Origin: Catajapyx aquilonaris
Taxonomy: Eukaryota
Length of the DNA stretch: 64,000 nt
Assembly: GCA_000934665.2 (NCBI GenBank)
Contig: JYFJ02000031.1
Span: 62,001-126,000 of the forward strand
Reading direction: 5' to 3'
The position numbers were made by a program, and so were the translations under genes. The notes under the pieces are model-generated. The model worked only from the letters and a program-made list of their open reading frames with translations. It made no database searches and was not told the origin of the DNA. Within the stretch, counting starts at the first letter, position 1. Every line of letters starts with the position of its first letter. Of this stretch, positions 29,239 to 64,000 are shown piece after piece.

Positions 29239-32200
29239 TCAGTCTTCTTCGTCAGAAGATTCGGATATGATGACCTCGATTAGGGGTCGTCCGCCCTGAG
29301 AGTAAAATGTGTCAAGACCATTCAATCATGCGAATCCCAGTTTACTTACATGTTGACATCGAGTGATCTCATGCACACTCAGGACCTCGACCTCGTCTTC
29401 TCCAGGCACCAGAGCCTGGTCCGATTCAGACTCATTTGAAACCATCTTCAGGAGAGGAATGGTCTCCTGCATCTCACCCCGGTCCTTCTTCCCAAAAATT
29501 GTGTCTTCATTCTCCAGTTCCTTGTGATCGGTAAAGACCTTGGCTCGGATCAGAGGTATCCTCTCCGAATCTTCAGAGGAAGACAAAGAAACACAACTCT
29601 CCCCTGATGTGTTAAGAGTGGACCGAGCATCCTCGAAGACGTCGTCGGACATGCTAGCACAGACGTCAATCTTCACTTCCTTTTCCCCCAGGTCTATGCC
29701 TGAGAGGCCAACTTGAAGGCTAAGCTCGTCCACTTCCGTTGCTTCTGGTCCACCGTCAAATTCAAGCTCTTTTGATTCTGGTCCGCTATGAGAAACACTC
29801 ACAACGATGTTGACTTCCTCATCGTCGTCCGGTTGTCGTTGAGTTGTTGGCAGCTTCACATCCTCAGAGCTACAAAAAATGACGTTTCATATTGGGAATA
29901 TCACGAAATAATATTGTGCACATGCCTGTCAGAATCCTTCGGTGTGTCCTCATTTTGCTCGCTGTCTTCCTGCTGCTCAAGTTCTTCCCACAGTTCGTCA
30001 TCTTTGACCTCCCCGGCGGCTTCCATTTCTTCTATGGTCGGCTTCTTCTTTAGTTTCAAAAGGGCTGTAAAAATGCCAGGTAAGAGTCATGCACTTTGAG
30101 AGTGAAATGTAGGTTTCCAAAGTACCATTGACGCTGTCCATGATTTTCCGGCGCTCTCGGGCGTCCCACTCGCACTTTGCTTTCTGTTCGGCTTCGACAC
30201 CCCCTTCGCCCCTGAGGCACAAAAATTTCAAATGACACTTATGGATACGGCATGGAACATAAAGCGCAACCTACCAAGCGTCGATGCACACCCTTTCACG
30301 TGGAAAGACAGGCCGGTCGTCCAGGTACGTGAGTTCTCGCTGGAGAGGAAAATAATTTCATTTTTTTTCCTTCGAATGCATGTTTCTACGCGACGGAGTT
30401 CAACAAAGCAAATACAGCAGTGTTCCAACTGAAATGACGAACTGACATGAAATGAAACTTACGCATTCGTATATCACTTTTTTCCGGTAGTATGGCATGT
30501 CCTTGACAACAGGATTGCCTTGCAGGTAGAGCACGTGAAGAGCTGGCATTTTACTGAACACCTATGAAACAGGGCACACTTTCATAACTTGTTTCCACCA
30601 ATTATCCTGAACAATTATACCTCAACGACTCTCGGGTCTTGCAGGCGGTTGTGTGACACGTCCAGCACAGAGAGAGTTGGGCACTCCATCAGATGCTCCA
30701 CATCTTCGTACGTACGCAAGTAGTTGTGGCTGATCTGAAGCGTAGTCAGGGAAGGAAGGCAGCCTAAAAGAGGTTAGCAGTTAATTACTATGAACAATGA
30801 TGTCAGCGAAGGAAATCATTACTCAGGTTATCAATGGTGCTGAGGGAGTTGTGGCAGACGTTGATTGTGTCTAATTTCGTCATGTGAGCCAGGTTCTGAA
30901 ACTTTCGAATCAGGTTGTGGTGGAGATACAAGCAGCGCAACTCCAGCTGCTTGTCCAAGTTTGATATTTCCACCAGCCCGTTGCACTCTAGCCACAAGCA
31001 GCGAAGACCAGTGTATTCCTCCAGATTCTCAATTATACGGAATCCTAAAAGCAAGGAAAGGTGAGGGTCAGTGAATGCGTGAGATGCTGCATGTGAATAT
31101 ATACGTCACCTTTGTAATGCAAGTACAAGACGTCATTTAGGTAAGGAGTGCTGTACAACTTGTGCTCCTTGCAATGCTTCTTTAAGAATCGCTTGGTGAT
31201 TCTCGGACCTCCGTGTTCGTCGACCTCAGGGGATGGCGGACGTAGCCAGTTGTCTATACCTATGCCCTTGGCGATTTCCTCCGCGACAATTTCTTCTATT
31301 GTCTTGTCCTCCTCGTCTTTCTCAGCTTCTGAGTGATCGCCTGAGGGACCAGTCGACGAAAGCTCTTCCTCTGACTTCACATCTGCGTGATCCTGCTCCG
31401 ATTCTTGCTTGGGAGTGAAAGTGGCTTCTGCTGGTTCACCAGTACCTTCTGTACGAACCTCGCACATTTTGTCCTTCTGCTCAGCTTCATGCCTCTCCTC
31501 CGCAGCAGATTCACGGATATCTCTCAACGTTGCCCTGCCAGACTCTTCACACACTGGCACGGCCGTACCTCCTGTACCTGAACCTTCTGTAAGAACCTCA
31601 CTGGCATTGTCCTTTTGCTCAGCTTCATGCCTCTCCTCTGTAACGGATTCATGAACAGCTTTCAATGCAGGTTCGCCAGGCGCTACACACACTGGCACTT
31701 CCTTATCTTCTGTAAGAACTTTGTCAATGTGCTCAGCGTCATGCTCCTCCTCTGTGGCGGATTCTTGGAAAGCCTTTGTTGCTTTCTTTGAATCATCAGT
31801 GTTCTCTTTACACACAAGTTCTTGAAAGGCAGAATCTGGTTCCTCCTTATCAACAACTGTTGGTTCTTCATCTACATGATCGCACAAAATCTGGTCTGCG
31901 GGATGCTCAGTTTCCTCCCCATTGGGTTTGTCTACTACTTTGGGACTGTTATCTGACTCATTGGAAGCAGCCTTCTCAGGACTGTCTGTCTGATCTTCAA
32001 AATCTTCAACAGACGGTTTCATCTCAATCACACCGGCACTGCAATCTTGGACATCAGCTGCAGAGCTGATTGCCCCACATTTAACTTCATCACTTGGCAC
32101 CTGATGAAGGTTTGATTCTTCTTCACCCTCCACGTCTCTCCTTTCTGAATTTTCGCATACAGTGACGTCCCTCTTGCTGCTATCAACATCGGCGGTATCA

Positions 32201-35058
32201 TGTTCCACCTTCAGTTCGTCTGCTTCTTTGGGAGTGTTTTCTTTCTCTTTGGAAACAGCCTTCTTATCATGACTGTTTGTCTCATCTCCAAGATCTTTGT
32301 CTGAAAACTGTTTCGTCTCAGTCACATAGGCACTGCAATCTTGGACATCAGGCACAGAACTGTTTGTCACACATTGCACATCACCACTTGGCACCTGAGG
32401 AAGGCCTGATTCTTCTTCATCCGCGCCTTCCACCTCCACATCTCTCCTTTCTGAATTTTTGCATGCAGCTATGACCTGTTCGCTGTTCTTAATAGAGGCG
32501 ATAAGCTTTTTCAGACAACATTCCAAACTGTTGTCTTCCCTACCTCCCGGCTCTTCTTCTGCAGATCTTTCGGGCACATCTGGACATACTGCTCCAGAGC
32601 CCCCAATGCACTCGCACTCTTCAGGCGAACACGTGGCACCAAAATAAGACTCCAGCTCCCGAACAAGTTCATCAGCTGAGTCGTTCAACCTCTGCCTTTC
32701 TTCCGGAGAACGACCATGAAACGACAAATCTCTTTCGAAACTTTCGTCGACTTCATGCAAGGCAGGTAGGGGTAGACGCATCGAAGGCGTCCGTGACTTC
32801 AGAGACGCCTTTACATTCGCGGTGTTCTCATCATGAGTGCAGATCCTCAGCACCTCCGCCACAACATCACCTCCAGACGGTATTATTGGTCCATCTCCCA
32901 CCATTTCATCCGCATATCTCACGTCGCGTCCTTCTCCGCCGGTTGGTCCGGCATTGTCTCCAGATCCCAATGTCAACAGGTCCTCCGTTGATAACGGCGC
33001 GGGAATGTACGTGTCCAAAGAGGAGTCACCATCGGATGACAAATCATCGTGGGGGTCCATTTCTGTCCAGCCATCTTGAAAATTCCTCCCATTTTCGCCA
33101 TCGAGTAAGGACTCAGAACTTTCGGTGGTCCAGGTGGTAACGCTGATGTGCGACGACTCGCTGGAAGTGTTTGTGTCGCCCGAGGAGCTCTCCAGATCAG
33201 ACTCACTCTCACAACTCTCATCAGATTCGTCGTTTGGTACCCTCACTTCGCCTTCGCTGTACTCCGCACTGCTTGGCGATTTGTCAGGCGAAGGTGGTTC
33301 GCTAACGCCACTGTTATAATCACTGCCCATCTGGCTCGAATTAGACACTGAGGTATACTCCGACTCGGGAGTGACCGCATGATCCGAATCAGAAATGGTC
33401 ACGTATTCAGAATCGTTGTCTTCGACTTTCATTTTGATTGCGCCTTGGCTGTCACTTGGCTGGTCCTCCCAACTACAATCAAGGTCCTCTGACACATTTT
33501 CTTGGCCAGTTGAAGCAGAACCATTCGCATCCTTGGGATGTCTCGTTACAGGCTTGCCACTTGTCTCACCTGTCCGATAACATCTGAATTGACCTGTTAG
33601 ATGATCCAGTATCTCTTCACCATCCTGGATCAACCGAGTCGTACTCGGAACGTCATCGTCTTGGCTGATGGTCTCTGAATTATTGCCACATGTGTTACCA
33701 GTTGCGCCTTCACTTTCATTAGGTTGATCCTCCTGGTTCGGATCAAACGTTTTCGATTCAGTTTCCTGAACGACTGAAACTGCGCCATTTACGTCACTTA
33801 GGCCTTCGATGTCTTCACCATGTTGACCAGTCTGCTCATTCAAGTCAGGGAACTGCGTGCCAACATCCGCACTGACTGAAGAAGTTGCCAGAGTTTCACA
33901 GACTTCTTCTCCATGACCTGAACAACTTTCGACAGTCGTGGTTCCAACACCAGGAGGAAAAGGAAGAAGTAGCAAGTCTCTTAAGCCCACTGAACGATTT
34001 TCGGGGGTCATGTCTTCACCACGTAGCTCAGATTCTGTCTCTAAATGTGGAGTAAGATTTCTATGCCATGCTGGATCGCACAAAATTGGTGCATACTCAG
34101 TGGATGACACCTGTTCCAATTCAGGCAGTGGTGCATCATTTATCTCATCATTTACTTCTGGATAATAATCTTCACATACTATCCACCTATCACCATCTCC
34201 GGGAATACTTGGACGCGGATGCATGAGCATAGCTGAAGTCGCTGGTGTAACTACCTGCGCCATTCCATCCCCACAAACAATGCTTACCTCTTCTTCAGAA
34301 GGACTATCAGGAAGAATCACATGCATAGACTCATTGTGATACGGCAAAAGCAGTAAGTTCCTCAGGCCTACTGAACTATCTTCGGGAGTCGTGTCTTCAT
34401 CTACAAGGTCAGGCACTGAATCTGATGGCGAAAAATGTACAGCACGATGTCCATCCCTTTGATTGCAGAAAACGTGCACACACTCAGTGGATGAAACCTG
34501 TTCTACTCCAGGTAGGGATGGATGCCTTAGTTCAACATCCAACTCTCCTTCACTCTCTTTAGGAGGATATGGAAGCAACTTGCAAGGAACTGAATAAGGC
34601 TTTTCATCTCCTCCAACAGTCTCATTGCCTTCTTCAGGAGGATAAGGAAGGAGCACATCCGAAGAACCTACGTGATCAGGCAGAAACAACAGGTTCTCCA
34701 GGGCTTTTGAAAGATGTTCGGATGTCACACCACGATCAGTCGTTGATTCTGTCACGGAATGCAGAACACGCTCATTCTCATCCCGTTGATTGTCCACCAC
34801 CTCAGTAAGTATCTGTCCCTGCCCAACTGCTGAATTCATTATTTCATCAGGCTCTTCAGTCGACTGCTGAAAATCTTCAGCTCTACCTATCGTCTCAGGA
34901 GCTCTTGGACGCTGAAGGAAGGCTGCTGCTTCAGTCGACTGCCTAAAATCTTCAGGGTCCTGACTGGAAAGGTTCTCACCTGCAGCCTCTGGAAAATCTC
35001 TCTCCTCCTGCTGTATATCGCTGCTAACTTCAGGAGGATAGGGGAGCAGTGAATCCAT
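29239..35058 (-). CDS. DNAAF1: Dynein axonemal assembly factor 1 homolog (LRRC50/ODA7) with very long acidic N-terminal extension; start codon uncertain (35058 or further upstream within the ORF reaching 35214)
   Basis: A ~4-kb open exon ends at 31110 ([34 protein letters not shown]). Then exons 31044-30823 ([22 protein letters not shown]), 30763-30621, 30561-30463 ([10 protein letters not shown]), 30339-30275 ([14 protein letters not shown]), 30211-30126, 30064-29926, 29869-29350, 29295-29239. Confidence 0.88.
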
Positions 35059-35699
35059 AGCCTTTGGTATATCCTTGGCACGCCAGAACGCACATACACC
35101 TGCGCCCATTTCATGAAAATGTGTTACAGCGCGCTCCTGCATTTCAGAACACAAGGAGCAAATAAATCTAACGCGTCTGTGACTTGCAAAACATAAATCG
35201 CTATAGAAAACCAATTAACTACAGTAGCCTACAGGATACGGGAAAAGGGCACGCAAACAACCGGAAATTTACTAGTAGCTTGAGCATGCCAGACACTTTG
35301 TCACAAATGACTATTTCTTATGTAAACAAATTGTTGTGAATGAAATTAATGTGCGGTATTTGGCTCATTTCAATCTCGGTGTTAGGCTTCTTATAAATGT
35401 CATTTGTGTGTAGGAGTCAATTAATTGTTGTCGGCAATACATATCAACAATCTGTTTTAAATTTATTGCCGAGCAGAATGACGATCAGTTGTTGAAAATT
35501 ATTGTTCAAAACGGTTATACTTCCCATCAGCACAATGCTCCCCGTCAATTACTCTCATTGCCCAACAATTATTCGTAGCAATAACCAAACCGACACACAA
35601 CGTATGTACCACGCCCTAGTCCAGGCCCACCCCGAATTCAAGCAATCGACCATCCAAAACAAACATTCAAAAAAACACACACGGAAGCACAAAAAAGTT

Positions 35700-47018: not shown

Positions 47019-47282
47019 TCATTCCTTGTTGTTGTCAGCCTTACTCTCGGCCTTACTAGTGGTCTCCTTCCCTGATGAATTGCTGCCAGTTGATTCCTTC
47101 CTCTTTCTCTCAGTGTTCATCAACTTGGTGACTATCTTTCGGCTATGTCCACTCGGGTCGTGATGGTTGCTATGCTGGTCCACCTCCTTCTTGGACCTCA
47201 TCTTACCGCTATGTCCAGTAAAGATGTGCTTGTCATGGTCAAAATTGTAATGCTCGTACTCATCGAAATGGCTCTCAGACAT
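47019..47282 (-). CDS. NUPR1: Nuclear protein 1 (p8/NUPR1), intronless, 87 aa
   Basis: MSESHFDEYEHYNFDHDKHIFTGHSGKMRSKKE...NHHDPSGHSRKIVTKLMNTE is the arthropod-type p8 domain. The true ATG is at 47282, inside the longer track ORF. Confidence 0.92.
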   Translation of the reverse strand: MSESHFDEYEHYNFDHDKHIFTGHSGKMRSKKEVDQHSNHHDPSGHSRKIVTKLMNTERKRKESTGSNSSGKETTSKAESKADNNKE

Positions 47283-50200
47283 GGCTCCTTTTGTTGTCTC
47301 TCTCTGTAGACCTCTCTCTTGGCAATAAACTTGTTCCAGGTGCTGCTTCGGGCTTTTTAGACTCACTGTGTGAGGGGGCAGCTTGCCAGACCGTATGTGG
47401 CTAGCTGATATAGCGAGGTCGCTACATAGGCGGAGGGGATTCTGATTGGCCAGAGGCTTTTGTGGTGCAAGTGGGGGGCTACCATTGGACAGAAAAGTCA
47501 TGTGTAACCTTTACTGTGGGTGACGAAGGACAGTCCGCAGTAATGTACAGAGTTACGTCATGTTTAGATGGGGTTGACATTATTTTTATGATGAGCGGTT
47601 GCAATATTTGTCACGTGATGTCTGGATACAGCAGATGGCGTTGCTTGCTTATACGTGAGGCATATGTGACGATATACAGGTTATATCGTGTGTACGTAGT
47701 AGCACGTGTGCTATGATAGATTGGAGAGTTTGGAGACAAATGATTTCGGAGTATTGGCCGTCCTTAGCCCCGATGTGAAGTTGGGTGCAAACGTGCAAAG
47801 ACGTAATAAATTGAATGAAATTACCATACGCTAACTTTTTTCACGCCTCAAGTGAAGGTAGAATATTCTCTGCTAATTGTAACAATACATAAGTAATAAA
47901 TAAATAGTAATAATTCTTATTGTTGCTATATTACACTATTAAAAAGTTTGAGACGTCTAGGAGCGGAAAATATGGTAAACAGAACCAATATCTTCGACTC
48001 ACGATTTTTCTTCATATAGTTTGGTTTACCCCGTGCTGGACCATAAATATATTTATATAAATATCAGATATTTGAATTTGCCCATATTTTAATCTTTGGC
48101 TATGAGTCAGTTAACTTACATAGATATTAATATCCATGTGATTATTTATTGTCTGTTTACATTTTTTTTACGATTCATGCTTGGGACGTCAGAGGTCAAC
48201 AAGGTTTTTCCATTTTGCCCAATTAAATCCCTAATTAAATCGCATTTCTTGATATGTACAAGTAGAAGCACAGCCAATGGCATGAGTAAGTCTCCAATAG
48301 TCATACAGCATAATTATGCTCAATAACAATAAGCAACTTTGATCCAAAATATAGACTACTAATAATTTCAGCTGACGTTACAGGCAGCCAATTAATCTGA
48401 GACTCCAGGTCGGGAAGTGTGATAAACAAAACGACGTCACTGGAGCACCGTTTATTGCTGATTTTAATACCCTGACATATGGGTCAGAAAATCTCACCCC
48501 CAACTGCAATGCACCACACTATAAAATTAAGAAACTCTTCTGAACACCGGTATCATGAACCACTATTTCTCAAGCACCAGCATGACATCTCAGAAAAATG
48601 AAGAAGACGCGCAGTGCCCTCCAGAGAGTCGTGACCACGGGTCGTGACCCAACCCTAGCAGTACATTTTATCGGTCAAACTGTGCAATCTCACCCAGTCT
48701 CAGGCCTTGGCTACCTACAATGCACTGTCAGCAGGAAAATGCCAGAGCAAATAATATTTTTGCGAGAAAAAATTCCCTGAGCTGTGCAAACAATTTCTAC
48801 AGCGCCTCGCGGGGGCTATATAAGAAGGCGGTAAAACAATTTTGGGCACTATAAAAAAGTGCATAATGCGATCCTGAAGTGTAATGGCCGGCCACAGACT
48901 GAGGGGCTTCTTGCATGGCTGGAAGGCTGGAAAATTGGGACCACAACCGTGACCCATTTATAAATGAGCCACATGCACAGTATTATATCTTTGTGAATAT
49001 TTTGTGAGGCGCATATGTAACTAATAAATATAAAAATTTAACTAAGTCATTTTGCATACTAGTAATATACAGGTATAAAAGCTAGACCAAAACTAACCCA
49101 GAAATTAAAGGAAGTCTGCTTGAGTAAATAATAACTAATTACAAATATTTATATTCCTGGAATGTGGGGAATACATTATGTCTAATTTTAGGCGGAAACA
49201 TAATTTTAGTTGAAATTAAGCGGTTTCATGCCCAATGCGTTTGTGTTCTTTTGTTCAAACATTTATTACTGAACTGTGCACAAACACCTGATGTACGGCT
49301 AATTACCGCATCTATGGAATTATTGTGTACCAACTCACACATTGCCGACACGCACTAATGTTATGCCGAAGCATGACTCATGAATAATGTAGATATTGTA
49401 TATTTTGCACTCGCGTCATAACTTTTTTTTAAACACTTGCAGGATAGCATGCACTTTGGGCTTCATCGCATGCATTGCATACCATGGCGGTATTCAGCTT
49501 CGCATGTGATACGTAGATCATGTGCACGTTTTATGTGCCTAGTACATAGTGACGTAGCCCTGCCATAAAAGTATCAAAGGCATTAAAACATTTTAACGCT
49601 TCATGTCCGAGAGAATGACGTGCTAATAAATATCTGCGGCTGGTCATGCCGATAATAAACCTGCTGCGTGCGATTGGCATGTAGTACTCCACTATTGCAC
49701 CAACTTGCGCGTATGTATTCACACCATGTGTACTGTGTCATGTACTGTACTTCCCCGTACAACATTTGCAACATATTTCGCTAGAGCATGCAATTGCGGG
49801 AAATGCGGGCTGATCAGGAAATATGTCTCTAATCAGCTGCTCATAGTGGCATGCACAACAATGTTGCGAAACACTTCGTCAAAATGTGCAATATCTCTGA
49901 CAGGATTCATATACCTGTAGATAGAGACTTGATAAGCAACCTAGAATATACATTACGGTACATACAGACACAGGTCAAAAGCAAGCGCGTCTAGGCCTTC
50001 CCGGCCAAGAGAGAGCAGACATCTTATCATGTCTTTGGCACAAATAGTTCACAGTTTTAAGGTAAATAAATTCAGATATCGAGTCATACTAAAAATGCTG
50101 CTGAAAACGCACAGTCAGGCTCCTTTTTACCCGCCAAACTTTGTGTATCATAATAAATCGATTGCCTTCCCTGTAAATTCCTGAGGTCCCAAGGGGCATC

Positions 50201-51210
50201 CTACAAAAATATTTTCAACTGCCCACTGCATATGACCACAATAACGACGGGCATTGATTGTCGGAAACGGGAGGAAACCCACGTGAATACGGAGAGAACC
50301 ATCGCAACTAATTTCAGTTTGAGAAAAATCCTCCGTCCGATCCATGGACCGCGAACTCGTGACCTCCGAGGTGCGGCTTGTGGTCTTATCCCCCAAAAGT
50401 TTGAACAATGTTTTATTCGTACCGCGGTTTTAAAATCCCATGACGACACTACGTGCATACGTGCATCTGTACAGTACATTACACGTCATTCGTACAACAC
50501 AACCCAATTTTACCTTAGGCCATGCTTTTACTTTCTAGATCTGATCCACCGTGATCTGGTCTTTTGCGGCATATGCCAATAACAATACGCTCATATATCG
50601 CCAGCCGCGCCAGCAAATTGCGCTGAGTGTCTGACACATGGTATCGGTGCTCCCTGCCCTGGTGCACTTACTTCATAAATCAGTGTGGATACTGCCCTCC
50701 TTCATTTCCTGTCGATGGTCGTCACAAATTCCTCCCTGAAACTTCCCCAAAAAAGCACAAACACTTCACAGGTGACACAGGAGCACATCGCGCCAAGTAT
50801 CCGACATGTTTACAAGTTGCCAGATCAATTCGTCCGAAGACGTAACCTTCACCGGATCGAAACTAAATTAGTTAATGAATACACTTATGGAAGAATAAAT
50901 AAATACATTGTTAATTAAATTTTATTTATGCGCATACTATTATTTACACATATTTAGCTTGTCGTAGTTTAATTGCAATCTGGCTACCTGAAATCAAGAT
51001 GGCGGCTCACACGACGCAAAAAGCTACGCAAACAACGTGGTGAGATAATTGCAATCAGTTTTAACGAACTTAAATGTTCTGGATAGCGTGTACTAATTTA
51101 TATTATTGCAGGATTGGCTGGTGAACACCCCCATCTAGGTTTTGCAAGCTTGGGAACGTGTTCCATCGACTGCTACGGTATTAATGTATTGAGCGTATTA
51201 ATCCGTCATC

Positions 51211-53891
51211 ATGCAAGTGCTGGAGGCCAACAATGTGAAGATTTACAACCTGAGTTCAGGGAAGTCCCTCCCCGATTGGTTGTCTGACCGCAAGCGAAGG
51301 AAGCTCCAGCAGCAGGATGTGGACATACGGAGACGCATTGAGCTCATCCAGGACTTTGAGATGCCTGGGGTCAGCTCTTGCGTGCAGTGCACCCCAGACG
51401 GGCAGTACATAATCGCCACCGGGATCTACAAGCCCAGGGTTCGGTGCTACGATGTCAACAACCTGTCCATGAAGTTTGAGCGATGTGTTGACTCGGAAGT
51501 TATCACCTTCCACCTACTTTCTCAGGACTATTCAAAGATGGTCTTCTTGCAGAATGATCGGTAGGTCTTGGTTTGGTGTAGGTACGTAGCGAAGCAGACG
51601 TGCTTGAGACATGGTCACAACAACAGGGCATGACCCTGCCTCATTTGTGATCTAGTCAAGTGCATACGTCATGCCTCAAGCACATTGGCTCCTCACAATC
51701 AGTGGTAAAAGGCACTTGTTGTAGCCCAGTTTATACATAGTTTATACACTAAAATGATTGCTTAGAATCCAAACAAGGCAAAAAAATTTATAAATTAATG
51801 CCTAATGCTTTATCAATTTCTTCAACCAAAATGAAAAATTGTTAATTGAAAGATGGCTGAATCACTCACAGACACTGCCAGTTTCTATTGTACTACTGTC
51901 ACACGTACGATAAAGTGAAGATGATGGTGGCTGCTCATTTGTAATGTGCCATATGTTCACAAACCCTTTCATAACATTGCAGATATGTTGAGTTTCATAA
52001 CCAGAATGGCCGATATCATACCCTACGGATCCCGAAATTTGGGCGAGACATGGCCTACCACTCTGCCTCCTGTGACTTGTACCTGGTTGGTGCCAGTCCA
52101 GAGGCCTACAGACTCAACCTGGAGCGAGGGCAGTTCCTTTCACCGCTTCAGACAAGTGCTTCAGCACTGAACACCTGTGCTGTGAACCCTGCTCACCAAT
52201 TGTTCGTGTGTGGCACGGCTGAGGGCAAGATCGAAGCTTGGGATCCTCGGACTCATCGGAGGGCGGGTATCTTAGATTGTGTTGCTGGTGAACTTGCTGA
52301 TATGGTGGACATGACGGAGTTACCTTCTGTGACCTCAGTTGCATTTAAAGATGGACTAATCCTCGGGGTTGGAATGTCAACTGGACACACAATGCTGTAC
52401 GACATACGTGCATCATCACCTTTAATAATAAAGGACCACATGTATGGGCTGCCCATTAAGAACATGGCATTTCATCCCTCACAAAATCTGGTTCTGTCTA
52501 TGGATGCACGTGTTTTAAAGTTGTGGGATCAGAACACTGGAAAAGCATTCACGTCAATTGAATCCCAAAGTGACTTAAACCACTTATGTCAGGTTCCAGA
52601 TTCTGGACTCATTTTTATGGCCAACGAAGATCGCAAGATTTTGACTTATTACATCCCTTCTTTGGGTCCAGCCCCAAGGTGGTGCAGCTTTTTGGATAAC
52701 TTAACAGAAGAACTAGAGGAATCTCATATCGACACAGTTTATGATGATTACAAATTTGTCACTCGCCATGAACTCGATGAACTTGGACTTTCCCATCTGG
52801 TGGGAACTGAGTTGCTGCGTGCTTACATGCATGGCTTCTTCCTCGATATGCGCCTTTATCGAAAGGCTAAAGCCATAGCTGATCCGTTCGACTTTGAAGC
52901 CTACAAAAAGAAGAAGATTAAGGAGAGGATTGAAGGAGAGAGACGTGGACGCATTCGGAAGGTGGAGGTTGAGCTGCCCAAAGTTAACAAAGAACTGGCT
53001 CGAAATCTTATGGAGCGGGAACAGGAGGGAATAGGAAAGAAAAAGAAGGAAGCTGCACAGCTGCTTAAGGATGACCGATTCAAAGCAATGTTTGAGAACC
53101 CAGACTTTGAGGTGGATCAAAACACACCAGAGTACCGTTTGCTACATGCCGCCAATGAAGCGAAAGGGAAAAAGAAGGGAAAGAGGGTAGAGATTGTGGA
53201 AAAACAGCCAGTACGAGAGGAGGAAGAGGAAGTAGAAGGGAAGCCTAGCTCGGAAGAAGATGAGGAAGACTCCAGTTCGGATTATGACCAAGAAACAATG
53301 GAGGAAATAAAGAAGAAACGCAAGTTAATTCGAAAAGAAGGAAAGGCCAAATATAAGGAGCCGAAGTTGTATGAGCTGCATGAAAACCAGAGTCTGGTAA
53401 GAATTGCTCTTTGTATTTAATTGAAAATGTATGAAATTAACTGCTGTATTTTTCTTAAATGTATGTTGCTCGGAATTGAATTTTTTGAACCATTAATTAA
53501 TTAGACCTGGTTCTGACTACCGACATTTACTGTCGTAAAGAATAATTTAAAACCAGTTCTCAGTGATAAATTTGACCATCTGCAAAGTTTGGCCTTGAAC
53601 TGTTATTACTGTACTCACATTTCTTGGTTCCTCCTGTTATTTCAGGCATCCAGAAAGAAGAGTAAAGTGAGTTTAGGTGAGCGGCTGAAAGCAGAAGTAG
53701 GTGAAGCCAGTGATGTCATAGCATCGACATCTGGGGATCGCGAGATGACGTTTGAGTTGCAGAAGAAGGGAAGGAGTCGAGACCTGGAGGAAGCCGCCAG
53801 GCAGCATCGCCTGGAAAGGAAGAAGGTTCGACGTTCTGCTGGAGCACTTTTGGGAAGGCCCAAGACATTAAGAGGACGAAGAAGATTCTAG
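51211..53891 (+). CDS. NOL10: Nucleolar protein 10 (Enp2 homolog)
   Basis: Exons 51211-51560, 51983-53396, 53646-53891. Motifs NNVKIYNLSSGKSLPDWLSDRKRRKL, IELIQDFEMP, YYIPSLGPAPRWCSFLDNLTEELEE, LLRAYMHGFF, and NUC153-type DDRFKAMFENPDFEVD. Confidence 0.97.
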
Positions 53892-54337
53892 TAACATGAC
53901 TTTTTTTTTAAATACAAAAAACCTTTAATAAATTTCTCTCCTGTTGAAAATAAACATATTTTCTGTCAGTAGAAGTTGCTTTTACCTGAATAGATGAATT
54001 TTCTCTCTCCAGTATAGCCTGGCATATGACTTCAATATGTGCCAGTGCTTACAGTGACTGGTGAAGGAGGCACCTTCAGTAGTAAATATCTAATAAATGC
54101 CAGTCCTCCTATGAGTGAGTACTTCTCACAAGTTTACAGCACATGCACTTGGGCTTCCCTGCTGCAGCATATAAAAGTTACATTTTAAAAGTTGTGCAGG
54201 CTTGTAGTCGGTTGCTGTATGCTAATAGCATATTCTCAGGTGGTTTTCACCAACCTAGACGCATGCAAAAATATGCAGGCTGCCATTTTTAAAAAATGGT
54301 CACAATTATTACAGGACTAGCACTGAGCGTCATGTCT

Positions 54338-57300
54338 TCATAACGATGTGGTAATTCCCTTTCCGTTTTCTTCTGATAATGTCAGCTCAGTTATCAGAAG
54401 TGCTCGTTGCTTTTCTGTTTGTGGCGTCAAATTGGCTGTAAGACCCAGCTTTATTACCTGTTCAGAGAAATATAGGAACATATATTATGGTATGACTGTT
54501 TCATGAAGAGGAATGGGAGGAACATTTACCTCCCGCAAGCTTCCGGGTGTTGTGCAAATGTAGTATATGGCATATCCAGGTATCCACATCATGGACGTAG
54601 AACTGAGTAAGAATCCAAGCATTTCTCCCCACCAGGGATATTGGTAGTCTCGTCCGTAGCGAATGGGCTCGTATTTAACGAAGTAAAACAAGAAAATAAA
54701 CTGCAAAAAAATCATGAATCTTTCCACTGCCATGTAGCCAATGCCATGATCAAGTAGCCATGACGCGTCATTTCCATACCACCATAAATGCTGGAGCTGC
54801 AAACATCCAACAAAAAACGAGTAACTTTGGAGGCTTCTTCCCCAACATGCTTTCTATGCATTTAGAGAACTGTTTTGGTCCAAAAATCCACATGATTCCA
54901 ATGGTCTGGAAAAAGCAGGCCCACAGGAGTGACATCCCGCTTGCTCCGTAAAAATCAAAGAGTTGGAATATGTACACGCCACCCTGAAAGTAACGGCAAG
55001 TCACGCAATGTGTGCAACTACACATTATGCAGTCTAGAGTCTTACTTCTGTGACCATTGGCAGTGCAAGGAGCAACATGACGATGCACACTGCCAGAGTG
55101 AACTTTGGCCTGTGAGCCTGGAGCTTATCGGACCAGTTGTCCACCATACCTATCACGAAGGATTCCACCCCGCAAAACTGGCTGTCGATGCCCAGTGTCT
55201 ACGAGGAATAGCTCTTGGAACACAAAACAAATCATTTTGCAATCCCCAGCAGAGAGCCTTACCAGCAACATAAGAAAGAAGAGTGCGGCCCAAACCACGG
55301 CTCCAGGCAACTGCAACACCACTTCAGGGTAGACCAAAAAGGCCAATCCAGGTCCACTTGCAACCACATTGCCCACGCTTACTCCAGCCCGATGGGCCAT
55401 GTGACCCAAAACGCTGAAGGTCAGCAAGCTGGCCAGCAGCGAAGTCGTGGTGTTCACGCAGCACACAATAATGGAATCGCTGCGATAGGGAGACATTATT
55501 ACACGGGAATGTCCCAACATGTTTCCAACATTTCAGCTCGCAGGTTACACCCATCATTTGGTACAATTTAGTAAAGCCGCAGAGGGATAGCTGTAATCAT
55601 AGGCTGTAAAAGTTCATAAATATTGTTGCTTAAAATTGGCCTGGTATTTGGCAAAAAAAAGATAAATATATTATTATGTGATGTAAGCTCACAGTCTGAT
55701 TTTCCAAATGTATTCCAACTGTTTCAGTTAATTGTATGGGACTAATCTGCTTATTTTTCAGAAGTTCATTTTTTTATTTTTTTTTATTTTTACAACATTT
55801 TCAGCAGTTAAGAATATTAGCTAAAAGGTATATGAAATTGAACTTGCATCTTTTTACAGCACCGCACTATGCGTCTAGCATCCTAAGGTCAACCGTTAAC
55901 TACAGATGGATCCAAAAACTATTATTTACCGGAAACAATTGTGGTGAAACTTGTTGTATGATCCCAAAGCCAGCAGCGTCCCTATTCCAACTCCATATGA
56001 AAAAAATATCTGAGTCCCACCATCAACCCAAGGCTGAGCGGTCAACAAAATGCTCCAGTCCGGGGTCACCATAAATGCAAGCCCTGCAGAGACAAAAGCA
56101 GGTTAAACACATGTAGTTTACAATTCCCAGAAGCAGTGAAAGTGAGGAACATCTGAAGCCGTAAAATAATCAACTTTGCTTTCTGCATCTCATATCAGTC
56201 CTTTTTCTCCATAGAGACAATGTACTATACATTCCTAGATATTTTTTTAAAAGAAATTTGTACAAACTGCAACTGCGGAAGTTGTACACATTGAAACTGA
56301 TTAAGCAACACTGCGAAATATAAAGCCCAATAAAGCACTTACATGCTTTCTGATTCCACCAATTGTCGGCCCTTTTTGTGAGGCACATATACAATATCTA
56401 TAAGGAAATCAATGATCTTGAACTCCTCCAGTGTGAAATGGAATCGTTCATCCGAGTCCAAGTTACTCTCATTTCCACTTTTGTTTTTACCCTCACCATC
56501 GCCTCTCTCGATCGGCCCGATTTTGTAGACATGTCGGTATAAAAGAAAGCCGGATTCACTTTCCTCAGCAGAAGTACACATCAAGCAGATCGAGAAGGGC
56601 TACAGACTTTAATCTTCCAGACTACCATGAACAAGCTTGTGGTAAGTATGAGAAATCAACAAAAAAGCCTTATCTGCATTTACTTAATGGTTATTATGTT
56701 GGCAGATTTTTCTGGTGCTGACCACTGCTGTCGTGCTGCTCACTTTGGAGGTCAGTGCAGGAGGAGGTCACAAGAAGGGCAAGGTGGAGTACAAGTACAG
56801 CTTTGGCATCAAGGGAGAGGAGAAGTACCATACCAAGAAGGGCAAGGGTGACACCAAGGCATACGGATACGCACATGTCAAGGGAGAGGTACGGAGCATA
56901 TATGGTCGGTGACAATACAGTGAGCTAACATTTGCTTCTTTCAGCATAAACACGAGCATGTGGAACCAGTGATCGTGGAGATCAAGAAGAAACATCACGA
57001 CGATGATTAGTACCACAGCCAAGCTCTTCTAGTCTTTCCCTCCAATAAAAAATCGCTTATTTTTTATAATATATTCTGGTGCTAAATAAATATTATGCCA
57101 CCCTGTATGCAAGTGTTTCACTTTCGATACCACGACATACAATACTGTAGTAACATTCTCTTGAAAATTTAAACGACAAGCTACATGCAAGGTTACATGT
57201 GAACGAATTAAATTTAAATTGTAGCAAACTTATCAGAATATTACAGTCACCTTGATGAATGTTGGCCTACCTTCTTACAGGTGTCCCAATGACACACAAC

Positions 57301-60300
57301 AATGCCTGATGATGAATAGGTCTATTTTCAGTTATTATAAACGGGACATGTTACCACATTTTTAGCAGCATATGATTGGAGGCAACCACAATCAACAATA
57401 AACTGCACCAAATCAGAAACAATAACATTGGCGACAGAAATGTGAGCATTATTCAGGGTACACTGAATGACCTGGAACCTCCCACAGAGAGTACTGTTGT
57501 TTTCGTTCAAAACCATTCACAAAAGAAAGTGAAAGATTGAACTCCTTGAACCTATGGAGTAAAAGCAAAAGAGGTTTTGCTCGAAGAAAGTTGATCTGCA
57601 ATTACAGGCTGGACCTGCTAAGTCGCTAATACGCATTTACTGTGAACTGTCTGTCAAACTATATGATAGATACCAAAGAATGAGGCTACCAAAGGTCAGG
57701 CTTCTTTCCTGTCGTTGCCATGGCACGTTCTCTTTAGCGCATAATTTAATTTTTTTGTGCATATAGCGTGATGGATGCAGCCCTAGTAAGTGACCTGGGG
57801 GTTTGCCAATTCTTTGAGGAAGTTCGGATGATTAATTGATTGATGGGATGGGCGTGATCGGATCATAAGATATGCAAATCAATGTGTACATAAGGCAGGC
57901 CCATTGTGATTCAATTGTAGGTTCATGGTATAGGGAGTGTGAAGTAGTTGATTTACAAGTATAGGACTGGTCGTTATCCATGGTTATAAATTAAGCAGGT
58001 TAATCCAATTACGACCATTTATGCGAATTTATTGGAAGGCTGGTTTGCATGCAGCGTAAGAAAAAATGCACATGTTGATAAAGAAACTGCAGCAGTTACA
58101 GCAACTGTTACTGTCAGTGGATCTGATGAAAGTGCAGAACAATTTTATGCATTCTGAGAGTCATGATACGGAACACATGAGTCTATAAACTTTAACCAGA
58201 ATGATTCAATTATATTTCTATGACTTCAATATTTTATCCGATTTTATCCTGTCCAGTTAGCCTACACCATAACAACAGTATCAGCTAAGCTGATCATGAC
58301 TACACTACTGTACCAGTCGGACTCGGTCAAATAATATGCTTATTCTCTCCGTCGGATCTTTGCCCTACCTGATAATATCGCTTATGTCTCTCACCACCTG
58401 AGTGTGGCAGGAGTGTGCAGAGGAAGTGTGCACCATCTATACGTGACGAATAGTACTAAGTGGTAAATCGGAGGTGCATTTCATCAAAGTTGTTTGATTG
58501 TCACTGTCATACTGATCATGCCGAATTTTGGCTTATCAATATAAATCACCAATATCAAAAAATTCATACTCATCACCTCTTAAGAACTTTCCTGAGACAT
58601 TGTTCCTTATTGCAGGAAGTTACCCCTAGTTACGTAATCTTCACGTATTTTAGTCGGTTACGTCGTCTTATGGGGCCGTCACTATAGCAAAATGGTTTAG
58701 TGCACTAATAAAAGCCAGAATTTTTTGGGGTCCAAACTGCTGTGGAACCATGATGGGTGAAAGCTGTCCAGCCCCTCCCATCAGCCATCATCCCAAAAAT
58801 TCGCACCTTTTCTCCGGAAGTATTGTACACCAACAGCTTCTGGTGTACTGTCGATATACACCTCTCCCCTCTGACTATAAAAGCTTGTGGAGCTGAGGTT
58901 CCTGGCATCATCACCCTTTGGGACAGCTTGTCATCACAACCTCAACTGAAAGCTCCTCAACCACTGAAGACAATGAGCAAGCTTGTGGTAAGTTGCAGCA
59001 TCATTTTAATTGTTGGGCAGACATTGTTGTGATGCATTGTGTTGTAGATTGCACTTGCGGTTGTTTCGTTCGTGGCCGTTGTGTGGGCCAGTGGAGATCA
59101 CGAGGACAAGTACGACTACAAATGGGGCACAAAGATCTCGGGTCATTACCACGACAAGAAGCACAAGGGTCATGCTGAAGCGTACGGGAAGGTCCACGTC
59201 AAAGGAGAGGTAAGTTTGTCTTTGGGTCGTTGGTGTTGTACTACAACGTACGACAACGTTGGACACTCTCTGATTTTGTGAACTCTACAGGACAGTCACA
59301 AGAAGGCGGAACCGGTCATCGTCCACGTTGAGAAGAAGAAGAAGAAGCATCACCACGACGACGATGGAGGCGACGACGGTGGAGACGAAGGTGGCGACGA
59401 CGACGAGGGCGACGATTAGGCTTTCTGGCACCATGACAACGAGAGGTGAAGACGACGAAGGTGGCAACGACATCCAAACGGGGGACAAAATAATATTGCT
59501 CAAATATCATAACAATCGCAAATAAATGATCATGATTATGCATCCCCCTTCACCAAAACTTTGCCGTTTTCTTTCCTCCCGAACTATGCTTTCTGATATA
59601 CTGGAAATTGGTAGATGTGACACATACATCGGTCATAATAGAAGGGAAGCAAATTATCTGCGACGGTCACGCGCCTTTTCACAAAATGAAAGTGACCATT
59701 TGATCACTCTCGTACAACAATTTTGCAATGGAAACATATCCGTTACGTATATATAAGAAGCCAGGACAAGCACACCCTTAAAGTCATACAGACCACGACA
59801 CGACGATGGCAAAGACTGTGGTAGGTGTGTCACTTACTTAGTATATAGAGATACATGGTGATTGAGAAGATGTTACGAATTGTTCACTCCAGCAACTAAT
59901 TTTAAAAGATGCAACCAGTGACCTGATTACTGATTGAAACAGGTTGCTACGTTTACTTAATATTAGTCATAATATTAAGTTATATTTATTGTTTACCTGT
60001 TTGTTAAAATTGGCATGTTTATTTTTAGCAGTACTTTCAGTATTTAATTTCTATTAATTACGAAAGAGTGGAATGGCAATATGTTGTGGATTTAATTCAT
60101 ATTACCCATTCTCAATTCATGCAAAAGCTCAAAGTTGTGGTTAGTTATAACACTCAAGAAGTAAATAGAAATAACTTCAATATTTCAATTAATTATGCTC
60201 ATTTCGATCAGGTTATCTATGAGTTTAATTTCACTTAAATTGAGTTCATTTTAGGTAAAAAATTGATTGCTGGAGTGAACAATCCAATTTTCTTCTCCTA

Positions 60301-63300
60301 TATTATTGGGGACAGTCTAGTGATGACGATATTGTTACATTCCCAGATATATGTTATTCTCCTGGCTTCAGTAATCGTTTTGTGCAACTGCGGGTATCCT
60401 GGTGTCCACACCAGCAAAGTGAAGTACGAGTACTCATATGGCACCAAAGTGGAGGAGCAGCACCATGGGAAGCCGAAGGAGGGAGGGTACAGCTACACTC
60501 ATGTCAAAGGAAAGGTAATCAGAGTAACACACTGCTACGCCCTCATTAGCAACACCTCTCCAAATGCAAACGACACACTTATTTCCTGATTACCTGTAAT
60601 TTATGGCTAGCACTCTTGGTACTATCGGTTCTAGGGGGAAACCCGAAAAAAAAAAGTTGAGTCGAAGTAAATACAGTGATTAGTAAAATTACCGGTTATG
60701 ATAGCAAAGCACGGACGGATATTCCGGCTCATTAACGACAAGAAAAAGTTGAATAACTGGTTGGATATGGAGTGAAACCTTCATTCCCTAGCCCAAAAGA
60801 AGAAAATAACGTTACGATCCATTTTTCAGACCGAAGATCATTATGTGGAGCCTATCGTGATCACGCTTCATCAACCTCACCACCATCAACACTTCAGAGG
60901 TTACTGACACCTTCAATCGCTCCCACCTGTATGATATCAAGCAAATAAAACGTGTATATACCAAAGTGAAAACGTCTTTCTCTAAATGTACTCCAATCAC
61001 ACTCTAACTTAGACCTGGTTTCATGTTCCCCCAAAGGAAAATCATTGTGTTTGATTGCCTAGTGTGCATAATTAATTTTCCTTAATTTTCGTTCGTACAA
61101 CGGGCCCTTAGAATGTTCACAAATAAATTTAATGATATGAAATTATATTTCTTTATATCGTATTTTTTTAAACAGAGCAGACACTATGTTGTGCATCAAA
61201 TAGACTTTTTTTGAAACAAAACGACAATCGAAAAAACCCAAAAAAGGGCCCGCGATATCAACCTGAAGAACATAAATCACCAGGAGAAAAGGATAATTAA
61301 ATTATTTCAATAAAAAGTAGGCTACCGTACAAATATTCCAATTCTAAAAAATTATGCATAAAAATTTAAACTACACTTCAAAACATAATAATTCACTATG
61401 GTCCGGTTGCATAGCCTGTAGTAAAATATTCAGACTGGAAAGGAGCCAGAAGAGTTTGTTGAAGTTGTCAATAACGTTTCAATATTAATTACTGAAAACA
61501 ATTAATGTCAAACTCTCCTGGCTATTATCCAGCTCAAAATTTTACCACAGGTGCAACAGGGCCTTAAATCACTAAAAAATTCATGCATCTCATAATTAAC
61601 GAGCCATATCCTTTTGTTGATGTTAATATGAGATTTAATGTTTTCGTTTAAAAAAATTGAGACGATATTGAATTTCACTTCAATTCCAAAAAAAATTTGA
61701 GCGACATGGTACATAGTCATGATTCGTATTAGAGATGATTAGAGAGTTATTTACCACCATTAAAAAAATCTATAACGTGCACTGAGGTCACCCCCTATAA
61801 AACAAAGTGAAAACCCTTGGTTCATTTCTTCCTAACGAATCACCCCCATCCTTATGGGTCACTGGTGACCAATGTTCCTTTCGAGTACAACGACCAACCT
61901 CCTTGTGCTTGCAGCTAGGGAATGACCCGGATAATACTACGTTTTTATAAAGCACAAGTGGAGTAAAAAAGAAGCAAATTTCTTCTTTCTTCTTCTACAC
62001 CACAACCTCTCCCAGCCCAATTCCCAACTGGAGGTGCCGGCAGCCGTGAAAGGTTTCCTGCCCATCAACCTTTATCTCTATCAGAGAGAGAAACGGTGTG
62101 CTGCAACCCGTGCAAGAAAGGTGCAGGATATATAAGAAGCCGGTCAAACCACAATCAGCACACACTCAAGCTTCGACCACTCCCAAAGGCAGAAGACATC
62201 GACAATGGGCAAGTCTGTGGTGTTGCTGCTGTTGGCCAGTCTGGTCGCCTTGACCTTAGCTGGAGACCACGGAGGAGGAGACTCCAAGTTCGAGTACCAG
62301 TTTGGACACAAGGTGGAGGGACACTTTGAGGACAAGCATCATAAGGGGTATGCGTCTGGATACGGACACACGCACGTCAAAGGAGAGGTACGGATGCACA
62401 TTGTTCATGTATAATGTACCTGATGTTCGCACAGGTCTACTGGTTTTTCCCAAACGAGCTACGCATGTACCGTTGGTAGCCTGATTTTATTTCAAGGATA
62501 CTGGCACCTGTTGTATGGCCTTCACGACATACAATCTGGTTTAACAAAGAGTCAGTTCCTGGTAGTCAGATGGCTTCCGGAGCTCGTTCGTTTGGGTTCA
62601 CGTTTGGTCGATGTGGTTAGGATACACCAATCAACCAATAACTACAATTTCCAAAAGATTTGAGTGTGGACCCGGCTGTTTCTAATCTCAGTTTTGATTG
62701 TTTCAGTCGAGCCACGTGGCTGTTGAACCTGTGATTGTCCACGGCCATGACCATCACGGGGGTGGTGGAGGCAGTGGTGGTCATGGCGGTGGTGGCGGTG
62801 GTGGAGGCGGTCATGGTGGTGGCCATGGCGGCTGGGGGGTTTTTGACGGAGGCGACCATTACTGGTGAGCATACATGTTTAGTGGATATTCATGGATCAG
62901 GACAAGTATCGCCGCCTGGCGGAGCGTTTCACTTGCTTCATGTAAAGGAAAAGCTCCGCAAGGCGGCGATACTTGTGGGTATCCATGTATTTCCACCACT
63001 GCACTGTACAGGTTGGTTCAAACGGACGTGGTTGTGGTTGGGGATCAACCAATCAGCAATTTCGATCCGTGTGAACCCAATTAACACGTCAATTACATAA
63101 CATCCTAATTGTACATTTCAGAGTTCACCATCATTCGTAGAAGCTTCTAATCCAATTTTCTTCAAATGCCGCCAAAGAGTTGTACGTGTGGATGTGGTTA
63201 TTAATAAATGTTGATTTTTACACCTATTTTGTTGTTTGCTAACTTACCTTCAGATGCTCCCTCTAATGTTACACCTCTAATTAGCAGTATTACGATCGGG

Positions 63301-64000
63301 ACGTATGGGAATATCGCGCTGAACCAAATTATCTGTAAGAAATTACAAATTGTTAGGTACCTGCACTTGACAAAAAAAATGTAACTGCAATTTGGTGCTA
63401 AGTACTGAACCTTTGCGCTGTGATGAATTCCTTTCCAGACGACAAAATACACGATAATCCAAGCTAGGATCAAAAATCCAGCCAGATGCCATTGAACTTC
63501 GCCAATTTCAGTCAGTCCAGAAGACATTCCTAACACTCTTCGCCTGCGAAAAACACACGGTGTTATTAAACCACTTGTTGTGACAAGCATTGAATGGTTC
63601 AATGATAGATACTTGCTCCCAAAATTCTTCGATGGGCGACCTAAAGTCTGACGAAGTTCCATTTGCGTGTTCATTGTGCAGAAGAGTACTGTTGAAATCT
63701 TGGCATCTGGGTGTGTTCCACGTGTTGTCTGAAATAAATATGTATTATTGCTTAATTACTGTGGGTACTATTATAGTGCGCAACTTACTGCAATGAGCCC
63801 AAGGAAGGGCTGGCACGCGTGTAAAAGTACACATCAAGTAGTATAAAGTCCAGGCGACAATTACGATGTAATACACATCTTCTAGGAACACCATTGTTAA
63901 AGATGCGTATCCCACACCTGTAATATTCAACGCTGTTATTATTGTTGGTTTCTTTTTAGTGTTATTCGAAGCTTACCTTTGAGAATGGGGCAGAATTGCC
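54338..64000 (-). CDS. SLC6 sodium:neurotransmitter symporter (GABA/taurine/creatine-transporter-like), 5' part beyond window
   Basis: Exons >=64000-63977, 63917-63789, 63728-63617, 63543-63411, 63332-63248, 56083-55930, 55479-55263, 55198-55046, 54983-54780, 54700-54530, 54457-54338. Motifs CPILKGVGYA, LPWAHCNNTWNTPRC, EEFWERRVL, RGVTLEGA, WVDGGTQIFFSYG, ALGSYN, SGPGLAFLVYPE, LGIDSQFCGVE, GGVYIFQLFDFY. Confidence 0.95.
56538..56570 (+). promoter_or_regulatory. TATA box + Inr-like element of nested gene A
   Basis: TATAAAAG at 56538, followed ~28 nt later by TCAGCA; ATG at 56627. Confidence 0.7.
56627..57010 (+). CDS. Nested small secreted His/Lys-rich protein, paralog A (87 aa)
   Basis: Exons 56627-56641, 56706-56888, 56945-57010 (phase-0 GT-AG introns): MNKLVIFLVLTTAVVLLTLEVSAGGGHKKGKVEYKYSFGIKGEEKYHTKKGKGDTKAYGYAHVKGEHKHEHVEPVIVEIKKKHHDDD*; AATAAA at ~57044. 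Confidence 0.88.
58973..59419 (+). CDS. Nested small secreted protein with Lys/His and Asp/Gly tail, paralog B (101 aa)
   Basis: TATAAAAG at 58876; exons 58973-58987, 59048-59209, 59291-59419: MSKLVIALAVVSFVAVVWASGDHEDKYDYKWGTKISGHYHDKKHKGHAEAYGKVHVKGEDSHKKAEPVIVHVEKKKKKHHHDDDGGDDGGDEGGDDDEGDD*; AATAAA at 59521. Confidence 0.88.
59806..60907 (+). CDS. Nested small secreted His-rich protein, paralog C (86 aa)
   Basis: TATATAAG at ~59750; exons 59806-59820, 60347-60514, 60830-60907: MAKTVIYVILLASVIVLCNCGYPGVHTSKVKYEYSYGTKVEEQHHGKPKEGGYSYTHVKGKTEDHYVEPIVITLHQPHHHQHFRGY*; AATAAA at ~60944. Confidence 0.85.
62205..62868 (+). CDS. Nested small secreted Gly/His-rich protein, paralog D (~114 aa)
   Basis: TATATAAG at 62129, TCAGCA at 62155; exons 62205-62387 and 62707-62868: MGKSVVLLLLASLVALTLAGDHGGGDSKFEYQFGHKVEGHFEDKHHKGYASGYGHTHVKGESSHVAVEPVIVHGHDHH(G-rich with His)WGVFDGGDHYW*. 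The terminal TGA overlaps a possible gtgagc donor, so the extreme 3' end is uncertain. Confidence 0.85.
62882..62996. repeat. ~115-nt imperfect hairpin immediately 3' of paralog D
   Basis: gtggatattcatggat...acaagtatcgccgcctggcggagcgtttc pairs with gaaaagctccgcaaggcggcgatacttgt...atccatgtatttccac. Confidence 0.8.

Follow-up and report, generated by a model that had tools for sequence, protein, structure and literature searches.

Four nested genes and their shared core

The window analyzed here, a stretch of 64,000 nucleotides (nt) of Catajapyx aquilonaris contig JYFJ02000031.1 (C11:62001-126000 in our scan of the 286-Mb genome for relatives), contains four intact genes, A to D, for predicted secreted proteins of 86 to 114 amino acids (aa) that lie antisense within one intron of a gene for an SLC6 sodium:neurotransmitter symporter (Table 1). 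In a Pfam scan, PF00209 was matched on the upstream exon of this host gene and on one further downstream exon. All four nested genes have a TATA box 58 to 97 nt upstream of the ATG and encode an N terminus judged to be hydrophobic. Their introns are of the GT-AG type and in phase 0; in A, B, and C (3/4 genes), a first coding exon of 15 nt is followed by an intron inside the predicted signal peptide, and in 4/4 genes an intron directly follows the motif KG[EK] at the same place.

The core shared by A to D is real. It runs from motif 1, [YF]-x-Y-x-[FWY]-G-x-K, past motif 2, [GA]-Y-[GS]-x-x-H-V-K-G, to an EP[VI][IV][VI] segment (EPVIV segment), spanning 44 aa (41 in C). A sequence-only reading of this DNA had recognized the core, quoting motifs that all lie where it placed them, but had put its length at about 50 aa. 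Across the mature exon-2 cores, 10 columns are invariant and the mean column identity is 63%, and for 6/6 pairs the Smith-Waterman score of the core lies above those of 2000/2000 composition shuffles. In the same 6/6 pairs, the proportion of nonsynonymous differences is lower than that of synonymous ones (0.29 to 0.39 versus 0.47 to 0.68, with just 21 to 24 synonymous sites). The two motifs and the EPVIV segment are encoded on separate exons, and in 4/4 genes the Glu of the latter is the seventh residue encoded by the last exon. With cleavage sites placed by eye, the predicted mature chains are free of Cys, which that reading had stated for the core, and 4/4 contain 12 to 17% His.

For the 42-aa mature exon of D, a single-exon part that excludes the EPVIV exon, AlphaFold2 run with an 11-row alignment predicts strands at residues 11 to 23 and 28 to 40 joined by a four-residue charged turn (mean predicted local distance difference test score [pLDDT], 69; predicted template modeling score [pTM], 0.29). 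The core is thus predicted to be a hairpin and not disordered. On that register, in A to D and in a relative from another contig, E, 0 to 2 charged or His residues fall on one face and 7 to 11 on the other, and the difference in hydrophobicity between the faces is significant by permutation in 4/4 window proteins (20,000 shuffles; P of 0 for D and B, 5e-5 for A, and 0.005 for C). These data agree with the proposal made from the sequence, namely a long beta-hairpin that is amphipathic and turns at Lys/His residues. That proposal also included a third strand, for which the EPVIV segment is a candidate, and possible self-assembly. Strand 1 supplies the aromatic residues of the apolar face and strand 2 its Gly, Ala, Val, and Thr, while the other face carries Lys, His, and Glu. 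If a symmetric-turn register is assumed, and not read from coordinates, aromatic-Gly pairs face each other across the strands at two positions, in 10/11 and 9/11 sequences. A Foldseek comparison, suggested as a check along with AlphaFold, gave no significant fold match to the hairpin model, its weak rows (E of ≥2) often being pore stems. Sequences in the PDB gave no significant match either, and VIA-align gave nothing at a Z of ≥8, which does not amount to a demonstration of a new fold. A complex prediction with four copies of the D core, run without an alignment, had scores of 0.23 and 0.20 (mark, 0.32) and was counted neither for nor against self-assembly.

Table 1. Host intron and nested genes A to D (positions in the window)
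Feature	Position	Strand	Remarks
SLC6 host intron	56084..63247	-	GT-AG, 7,164 nt; flanking exons join in frame
TATA box, gene A	56538..56545	+	
Gene A	56627..57010	+	87 aa; exons 56627-56641, 56706-56888, 56945-57010; product Lys-rich, isoelectric point (pI) ~9.3; polyA signal at 57044
Hairpin core of A	56790..56888	+	Residues 34-66
EP[VI][IV][VI] segment of A	56960..56977	+	Last exon
TATA box, gene B	58876..58883	+	
Gene B	58973..59419	+	101 aa; exons 58973-58987, 59048-59209, 59291-59419; product with Lys/His run, then Asp/Gly tail, pI ~5.7; polyA signal at 59521
Hairpin core of B	59111..59209	+	Residues 27-59
EP[VI][IV][VI] segment of B	59306..59323	+	
TATA box, gene C	59748..59757	+	
Gene C	59806..60907	+	86 aa; exons 59806-59820, 60347-60514, 60830-60907; product with His-rich tail; polyA signal at 60944
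Hairpin core of C	60425..60514	+	Residues 32-61; 3 residues shorter than the others
EP[VI][IV][VI] segment of C	60845..60862	+	
TATA box, gene D	62129..62136	+	
Gene D	62205..62868	+	114 aa; exons 62205-62387, 62707-62868; without leader intron; product with Gly/His tail; polyA signal at 63203
Hairpin core of D	62289..62387	+	Residues 29-61; inside the AlphaFold2-folded stretch 62262-62387
EP[VI][IV][VI] segment of D	62722..62739	+	

Relatives elsewhere in the genome

Beyond the window, 8 more genes of the genome carry the core, and in most of them it is combined with a Pro-Val-His repeat tail. Gene E (on C1774) encodes the same hairpin, which scores above 2000/2000 shuffles against each of A to D, and has an exon of Pro-Val-Val-His-Lys repeats. 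Subfamily II comprises seven matches, six of which were used in the alignment after one near-duplicate was dropped. Its members keep both motifs, add a third, motif-1-like segment, and mostly end in the same type of repeat exon; the tails of four relatives together hold 33 Pro-Val-type units. Compared with the A-D profile, subfamily II yields a P of 6e-4 over 36 columns. When sequences are paired singly with one of its members, the signal is weaker, and 6 to 373 of 2000 shuffles reach the score. By these sequence comparisons, subfamily II is probably kin of the window core. In one of its genes (L017:1369-1743, minus strand), tandem seven-residue motif-1-like units lie inside the core exon, which suggests that the sheet can grow by repeat expansion.

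A further set of Gly-rich genes, subfamily III (52/55 matches at an E of ≤0.013, some near-identical copies perhaps being allelic), encodes a 47-aa domain that AlphaFold2 models as a four-stranded meander (pLDDT, 90), followed by Gly-rich tails with Gly-Tyr/Gly-Leu-Gly repeats. When A to E are combined with subfamily II, hhalign links them to this domain with a P of 1e-4 over strand 1 only; with subfamily II included, the motif-1 profile falls at the start of the domain in 13/16 sequences and the motif-2 profile at its end in 14/16, whereas the profile of A to D alone places motif 2 at the end in 4/16. From these profiles, it is plausible that subfamily III is kin of the window core. In VIA-align, its model reached a Z of 7.1 to complement and gasdermin pore chains (root mean square deviations of 1.2 and 1.7; 47 residues aligned), a value within the range of common arrangements.

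Genes of subfamilies II and III occur in convergent pairs on C541 and C5359, and these tail-to-tail pairs are repeated, having been duplicated as a unit (C541:62000-84700 and C5359; loci L014-L020 and L023). On C473 (39500-49499, L066), four divergent subfamily III genes with very different tails stand in tandem, one of them a 416-codon frame with Arg/Gln/Glu/Pro repeats. The leader intron present in A to C and in most of the subfamily II and III genes inspected is missing in D (62205-62387) and E (L001:4983-5159), probably through intron loss.

A cuticle role weighed against its rivals

Taken together, gene layout, tail types, and the position of some relatives near genes of the Rebers-Riddiford (R&R) family (CPR genes) make it rather probable that A to D are a tandem subfamily of a larger, lineage-restricted family of structural arthropod cuticle proteins that lack the R&R domain. 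The host is an arthropod, since its genome has at least 66 matches to PF00379 (Chitin_bind_4). The layout in which a TATA box is followed by a first coding exon of 15 nt and then by a phase-0 intron within the signal peptide recurs at both CPR loci inspected (L003 and L004). Of 88 Drosophila genes that encode a signal peptide and have a phase-0 intron at position 5, 38 code for cuticle proteins, versus 2.8% overall (PMC1626468), and in Anopheles, first exons measure 3 to 36 nt in 86% of intron-bearing CPR genes (PMC2259329). The relatives carry cuticle-type tails, namely Pro-Val-Val-His-Lys repeats in E and subfamily II and Gly-Tyr/Gly-Leu-Gly repeats in subfamily III. Family genes lie on 3 of 32 CPR-bearing contigs versus 0.24 expected (P of 0.002, or 0.04 with a tripled expectation; the lengths of six small contigs are estimates, and the number of listed CPR genes is a minimum), at distances from a CPR gene of 1.2 kb on C567, 2.3 kb on C9023, and ~130 kb on C8. 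The His content of A to D falls within the range for His-rich scale proteins, which contain 6 to 45% His and cross-link with laccase and catecholamines (PMC8062583). As a lead only, neighbors in the Atlas are arthropod proteins, partly cuticle-named (scores of 0.78 to 0.82).

Several observations weigh against a cuticle role. Genes other than those for cuticle proteins have short leader exons as well (PMC2259329), and neither cores nor exons matched a known cuticle-family domain in Pfam. A to D have no CPR neighbor, as none of the at least 66 PF00379 matches listed lies on C11; the family genes that share contigs with CPR genes belong to subfamily III, which is only weakly linked to A to D alone (hhalign P of 0.007, strand 1 only). 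The hairpin model has a pTM of 0.29 on the basis of 11 sequences, and all Atlas scores lie below 0.9. Finally, the idea that the EPVIV segment corresponds to one unit of the Pro-Val repeat of the relatives, which takes a similar position in gene E, found no support: shuffle tests were not significant (P of 0.08 to 0.46; 938, 805, 2314, and 401 of 5000 shuffles reached the score).

The sequence-only reading had likened the core to the first half of the R&R chitin-binding motif, while observing that the YxADxxGF end is absent. The aromatic triad Y/F-x-Y/F/W-x-Y/F, as defined in PMC2259329, is present in 3/4 proteins (A, C, and D), B carrying Trp in the last place, and the GxYSY stretch matches only in C (1/4). 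The C-terminal G-x8-G-x6-Y-x-A-D..G-[FY] part is indeed missing from 4/4 gene models, as judged by eye with a pattern that is visible in the control alignment. As for kinship, PF00379 matched 0/4 exon-2 peptides at an E of up to 10, 0/4 last exons, and 0/11 cores, exons being scanned separately, whereas 20/20 R&R domains of the same genome matched; Pfam gave nothing beyond an E of 0.07 for the 11 cores. A profile-profile comparison likewise revealed no relation: when the core was aligned by hhalign with 20 R&R domains, drawn from the 66 listed for this genome, the probabilities were 0.68% over 5 columns and 0.71% over 8. Both core motifs do outscore shuffles on R&R domains, yet at scattered, inconsistent positions, which argues that the likeness reflects a generic alternating YxYxY strand and not homology. 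The notion that A to D are highly diverged, half CPR proteins is therefore already largely refuted, and we regard it as highly improbable. A PF00379 match, or full disorder without conserved homologs, had been named as the outcomes that would undo the first interpretation; we found no such match, a core that is not predicted to be disordered, and homologs, albeit only within this genome.

How might these proteins contribute to a cuticle? Following export, for which the hydrophobic N terminus would serve as the signal peptide, the core would fold into a long two-stranded antiparallel hairpin, a step predicted with medium confidence and with its two faces evident in the sequence. Since two strands alone cannot bury an apolar face, the hairpin may then lie with this face flat on a chitin fibril or on another copy, its free edges joining neighbors into a wider sheet. 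By analogy with His-rich insect cuticle proteins, the Lys/His face and the His-rich tails could be where quinones form cross-links or metals bind as the cuticle hardens, and the last exon, which varies from basic to acidic, His rich, or Gly/His rich, could tune the material. A bolder version, which we think unlikely, is that the hairpin is the smallest member of a novel class of exoskeleton modules, independent of R&R and peritrophin domains. Such modules would polymerize through their edges into a beta-sheet one layer thick, with the aromatic/Gly face on chitin and the Lys/His face available for cross-linking. In this scenario, some 65 cuticle genes of one lineage would be built on a two-, three-, or four-strand module with exchangeable tail exons. 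In the window proteins, the two motifs would pair with each other inside a single chain, whereas in the relatives with four strands they would form the two outer strands and could pair only between chains.

Other secreted materials could use proteins of this kind, and A to D might instead be structural parts of a silk, a glue, an egg or spermatophore coat, or a gut lining, hardening through His-metal binding and beta-sheet assembly like the jaw protein Nvjp-1. They are predicted to be secreted, Cys-free polyampholytes rich in His, Gly, and Lys, the lack of a CPR neighbor on C11 fits as well, and mature D, with 37% Gly and 17% His, comes near Nvjp-1 with 36% Gly and 27% His (PMC9999432). This likeness was assessed by composition, however, and gene layout, repeat tails, and the CPR neighborhood of the relatives fit an epidermal cuticle better, so that we deem a noncuticular material unlikely. 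Even less probable in our judgment are Cys-free, Gly/His-rich antimicrobial or membrane-active peptides resembling attacin or diptericin, whose hairpin would insert into a membrane and oligomerize to a barrel. Their size (7 to 10 kDa), the 11 to 16% Gly of A to C, which lies within the 10 to 22% of attacins (PMC6267271), the predicted 13-residue strands with strict polar/apolar alternation, and the pore stems among the weak fold rows would agree with such a function. Against it, those fold matches are not significant, the exons and 11 cores have no Pfam match to an attacin/diptericin domain, the apolar face is mostly Gly and Ala with a mid-strand Glu in A and C, and B and D are net acidic. A kappaB-like site is also absent from the four promoters, a weak point given background means of just 0.2 and 1.6; kappaB, FTZ-F1, GATA, E-box, and two further promoter motifs showed no enrichment there.

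Homologs outside this genome were not found. Word-seeded searches yielded none, whether they used alignment A1 (24 candidates of 29 to 107 aa, a range that excludes D at 114 aa) or that of subfamily III (5159 candidates of 84 to 2000 aa), and metagenome scans gave 133 and 427 pattern matches, none confirmed as a relative. Three matches from a hidden Markov model search of 1.84 billion representatives were rejected as repeat artifacts in proteins of 795 to 1056 aa without the motif pair; this search is insensitive, as subfamily II scores 30.8 bits locally versus 35.7 for the weakest match reported and would be missed. The neighboring NOL10 protein helps in reading these negatives. Its identity is at most 66% among the 120 matches listed, and a 50-row tree, built from the query and 49 of the 120, places it outside the clade of winged insects. 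There it groups, with weak support (86/93), with Artemia, Orchesella, and insects; no row is labeled myriapod. No close relative of the lineage is thus among the listed matches, which limits the meaning of the missing homologs. Some R&R domains of the genome also look, by eye, like the RR-1 type. This type is reported to be absent from chelicerates (PMC4244043).

The hairpin module appears to be undescribed: the openly accessible literature searched, supplements aside, does not mention the family, although a table of unclassified cuticle proteins could hold members, and a search for four family motifs returned only titles on unrelated subjects. The kind of protein itself, a lineage-restricted, secreted, low-complexity cuticle protein, is already known. 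Curated knowledge of cuticle proteins is ~89% insect by species (Cuticulome preprint 10.64898/2026.10.18.759974), and the exoskeleton of arthropods other than insects may contain protein families that escape every profile. With ~65 genes versus at least 66 PF00379 matches, a family undetected by Pfam may here equal the listed CPR set in size. Since a hairpin of just 33 residues, free of Cys and with two strictly distinct faces, can readily be synthesized, chitin binding and self-assembly are directly testable, and the hairpin could become a design element for protein materials. If this is merely another fast-evolving low-complexity cuticle family, the gain would be one of annotation.

Genomic surroundings and known systems

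At the 3' end of the cluster, the first AATAAA after gene D, at 63203, lies only ~45 nt from the donor site of the host intron on the opposite strand. The predicted 3' untranslated region of D contains a palindromic repeat of ~120 bp (62882-63005; -73 kcal/mol, z of -10). It is dispersed, with 80 genome matches, both strands counted, from 40 of 155 candidates scored (72 to 93% identity, excluding itself), and looks like a miniature inverted-repeat transposable element. No tRNA-like gene was found in 54000-64000. Ordinary neighbors in the window are NOL10 (51202-53891, plus strand), a p8/NUPR1-type gene (47019-47510, minus strand), and a gene containing leucine-rich repeats (25914-27787, minus strand); at 31045-35214 (minus strand), one open frame of 1389 codons has no match in Pfam.

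The nesting of the four genes in the SLC6 intron is probably incidental. Drosophila Pcp, for comparison, encodes a pupal cuticle protein. It likewise lies on the opposite strand within an intron of an unrelated gene, ade3 (Gart), and ~6% of fly genes are nested (PMC3160391). The present case differs in that one intron holds four paralogs, which belong to a family unrelated to Pcp.

Among known cuticle proteins, the CPR family resembles A to D in being secreted, free of Cys, and built around a beta-rich aromatic core, as far as predicted, and its genes resemble theirs in the TATA box, the short phase-0 leader exon, tandem arrays, and low-complexity flanks. It differs in giving no sequence or profile match with them, in having a 64-aa domain instead of a 33-aa hairpin, and in possessing the YxAD..GF half. 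CPLCP proteins, which are recognized by a high density of PV and PY (PMC10138643) and share three conserved family motifs (PMC8062583), are approached by the relatives with dense Pro-Val repeats, but each window protein has just one PV or PI and no PY. For CPG proteins, the criterion is multiple GGYGG or GGxGG repeats together with homology to lepidopteran CPGs (PMC10138643); the Gly-Tyr/Gly-Leu-Gly tails of the relatives are similar, and GGxGG repeats occur in D only (1/4 window proteins). The CPLCA/retinin domain PF04527 had no Pfam match in the exons or 11 cores, an Atlas score of 0.78 being a lead only. In contrast to CPLCP, CPLCA, and CPG, the window family shares a predicted ordered beta module, a feature that the available text of PMC10138643 and PMC12426002 does not list for those families.

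Beyond arthropods, Nvjp-1 from the jaw of Nereis virens is also Gly/His rich and Cys free with Gly-flanked Tyr, and D is near it in composition, the only level at which the two were compared. At pH 5, this annelid protein of 32 to 40 kDa consists mainly of turns and random coil; a higher pH makes it rich in beta structure, and with Zn it assembles into amyloid-like fibrils (PMC9999432). Closer to a cuticle are the His-rich cuticular proteins of lepidopteran scales, such as BmorCPR152. Although these are mostly RR-2 proteins (PMC8062583) and the window proteins lack an R&R domain, the two resemble each other in His content and as candidate substrates for cross-linking by laccase and catecholamines.

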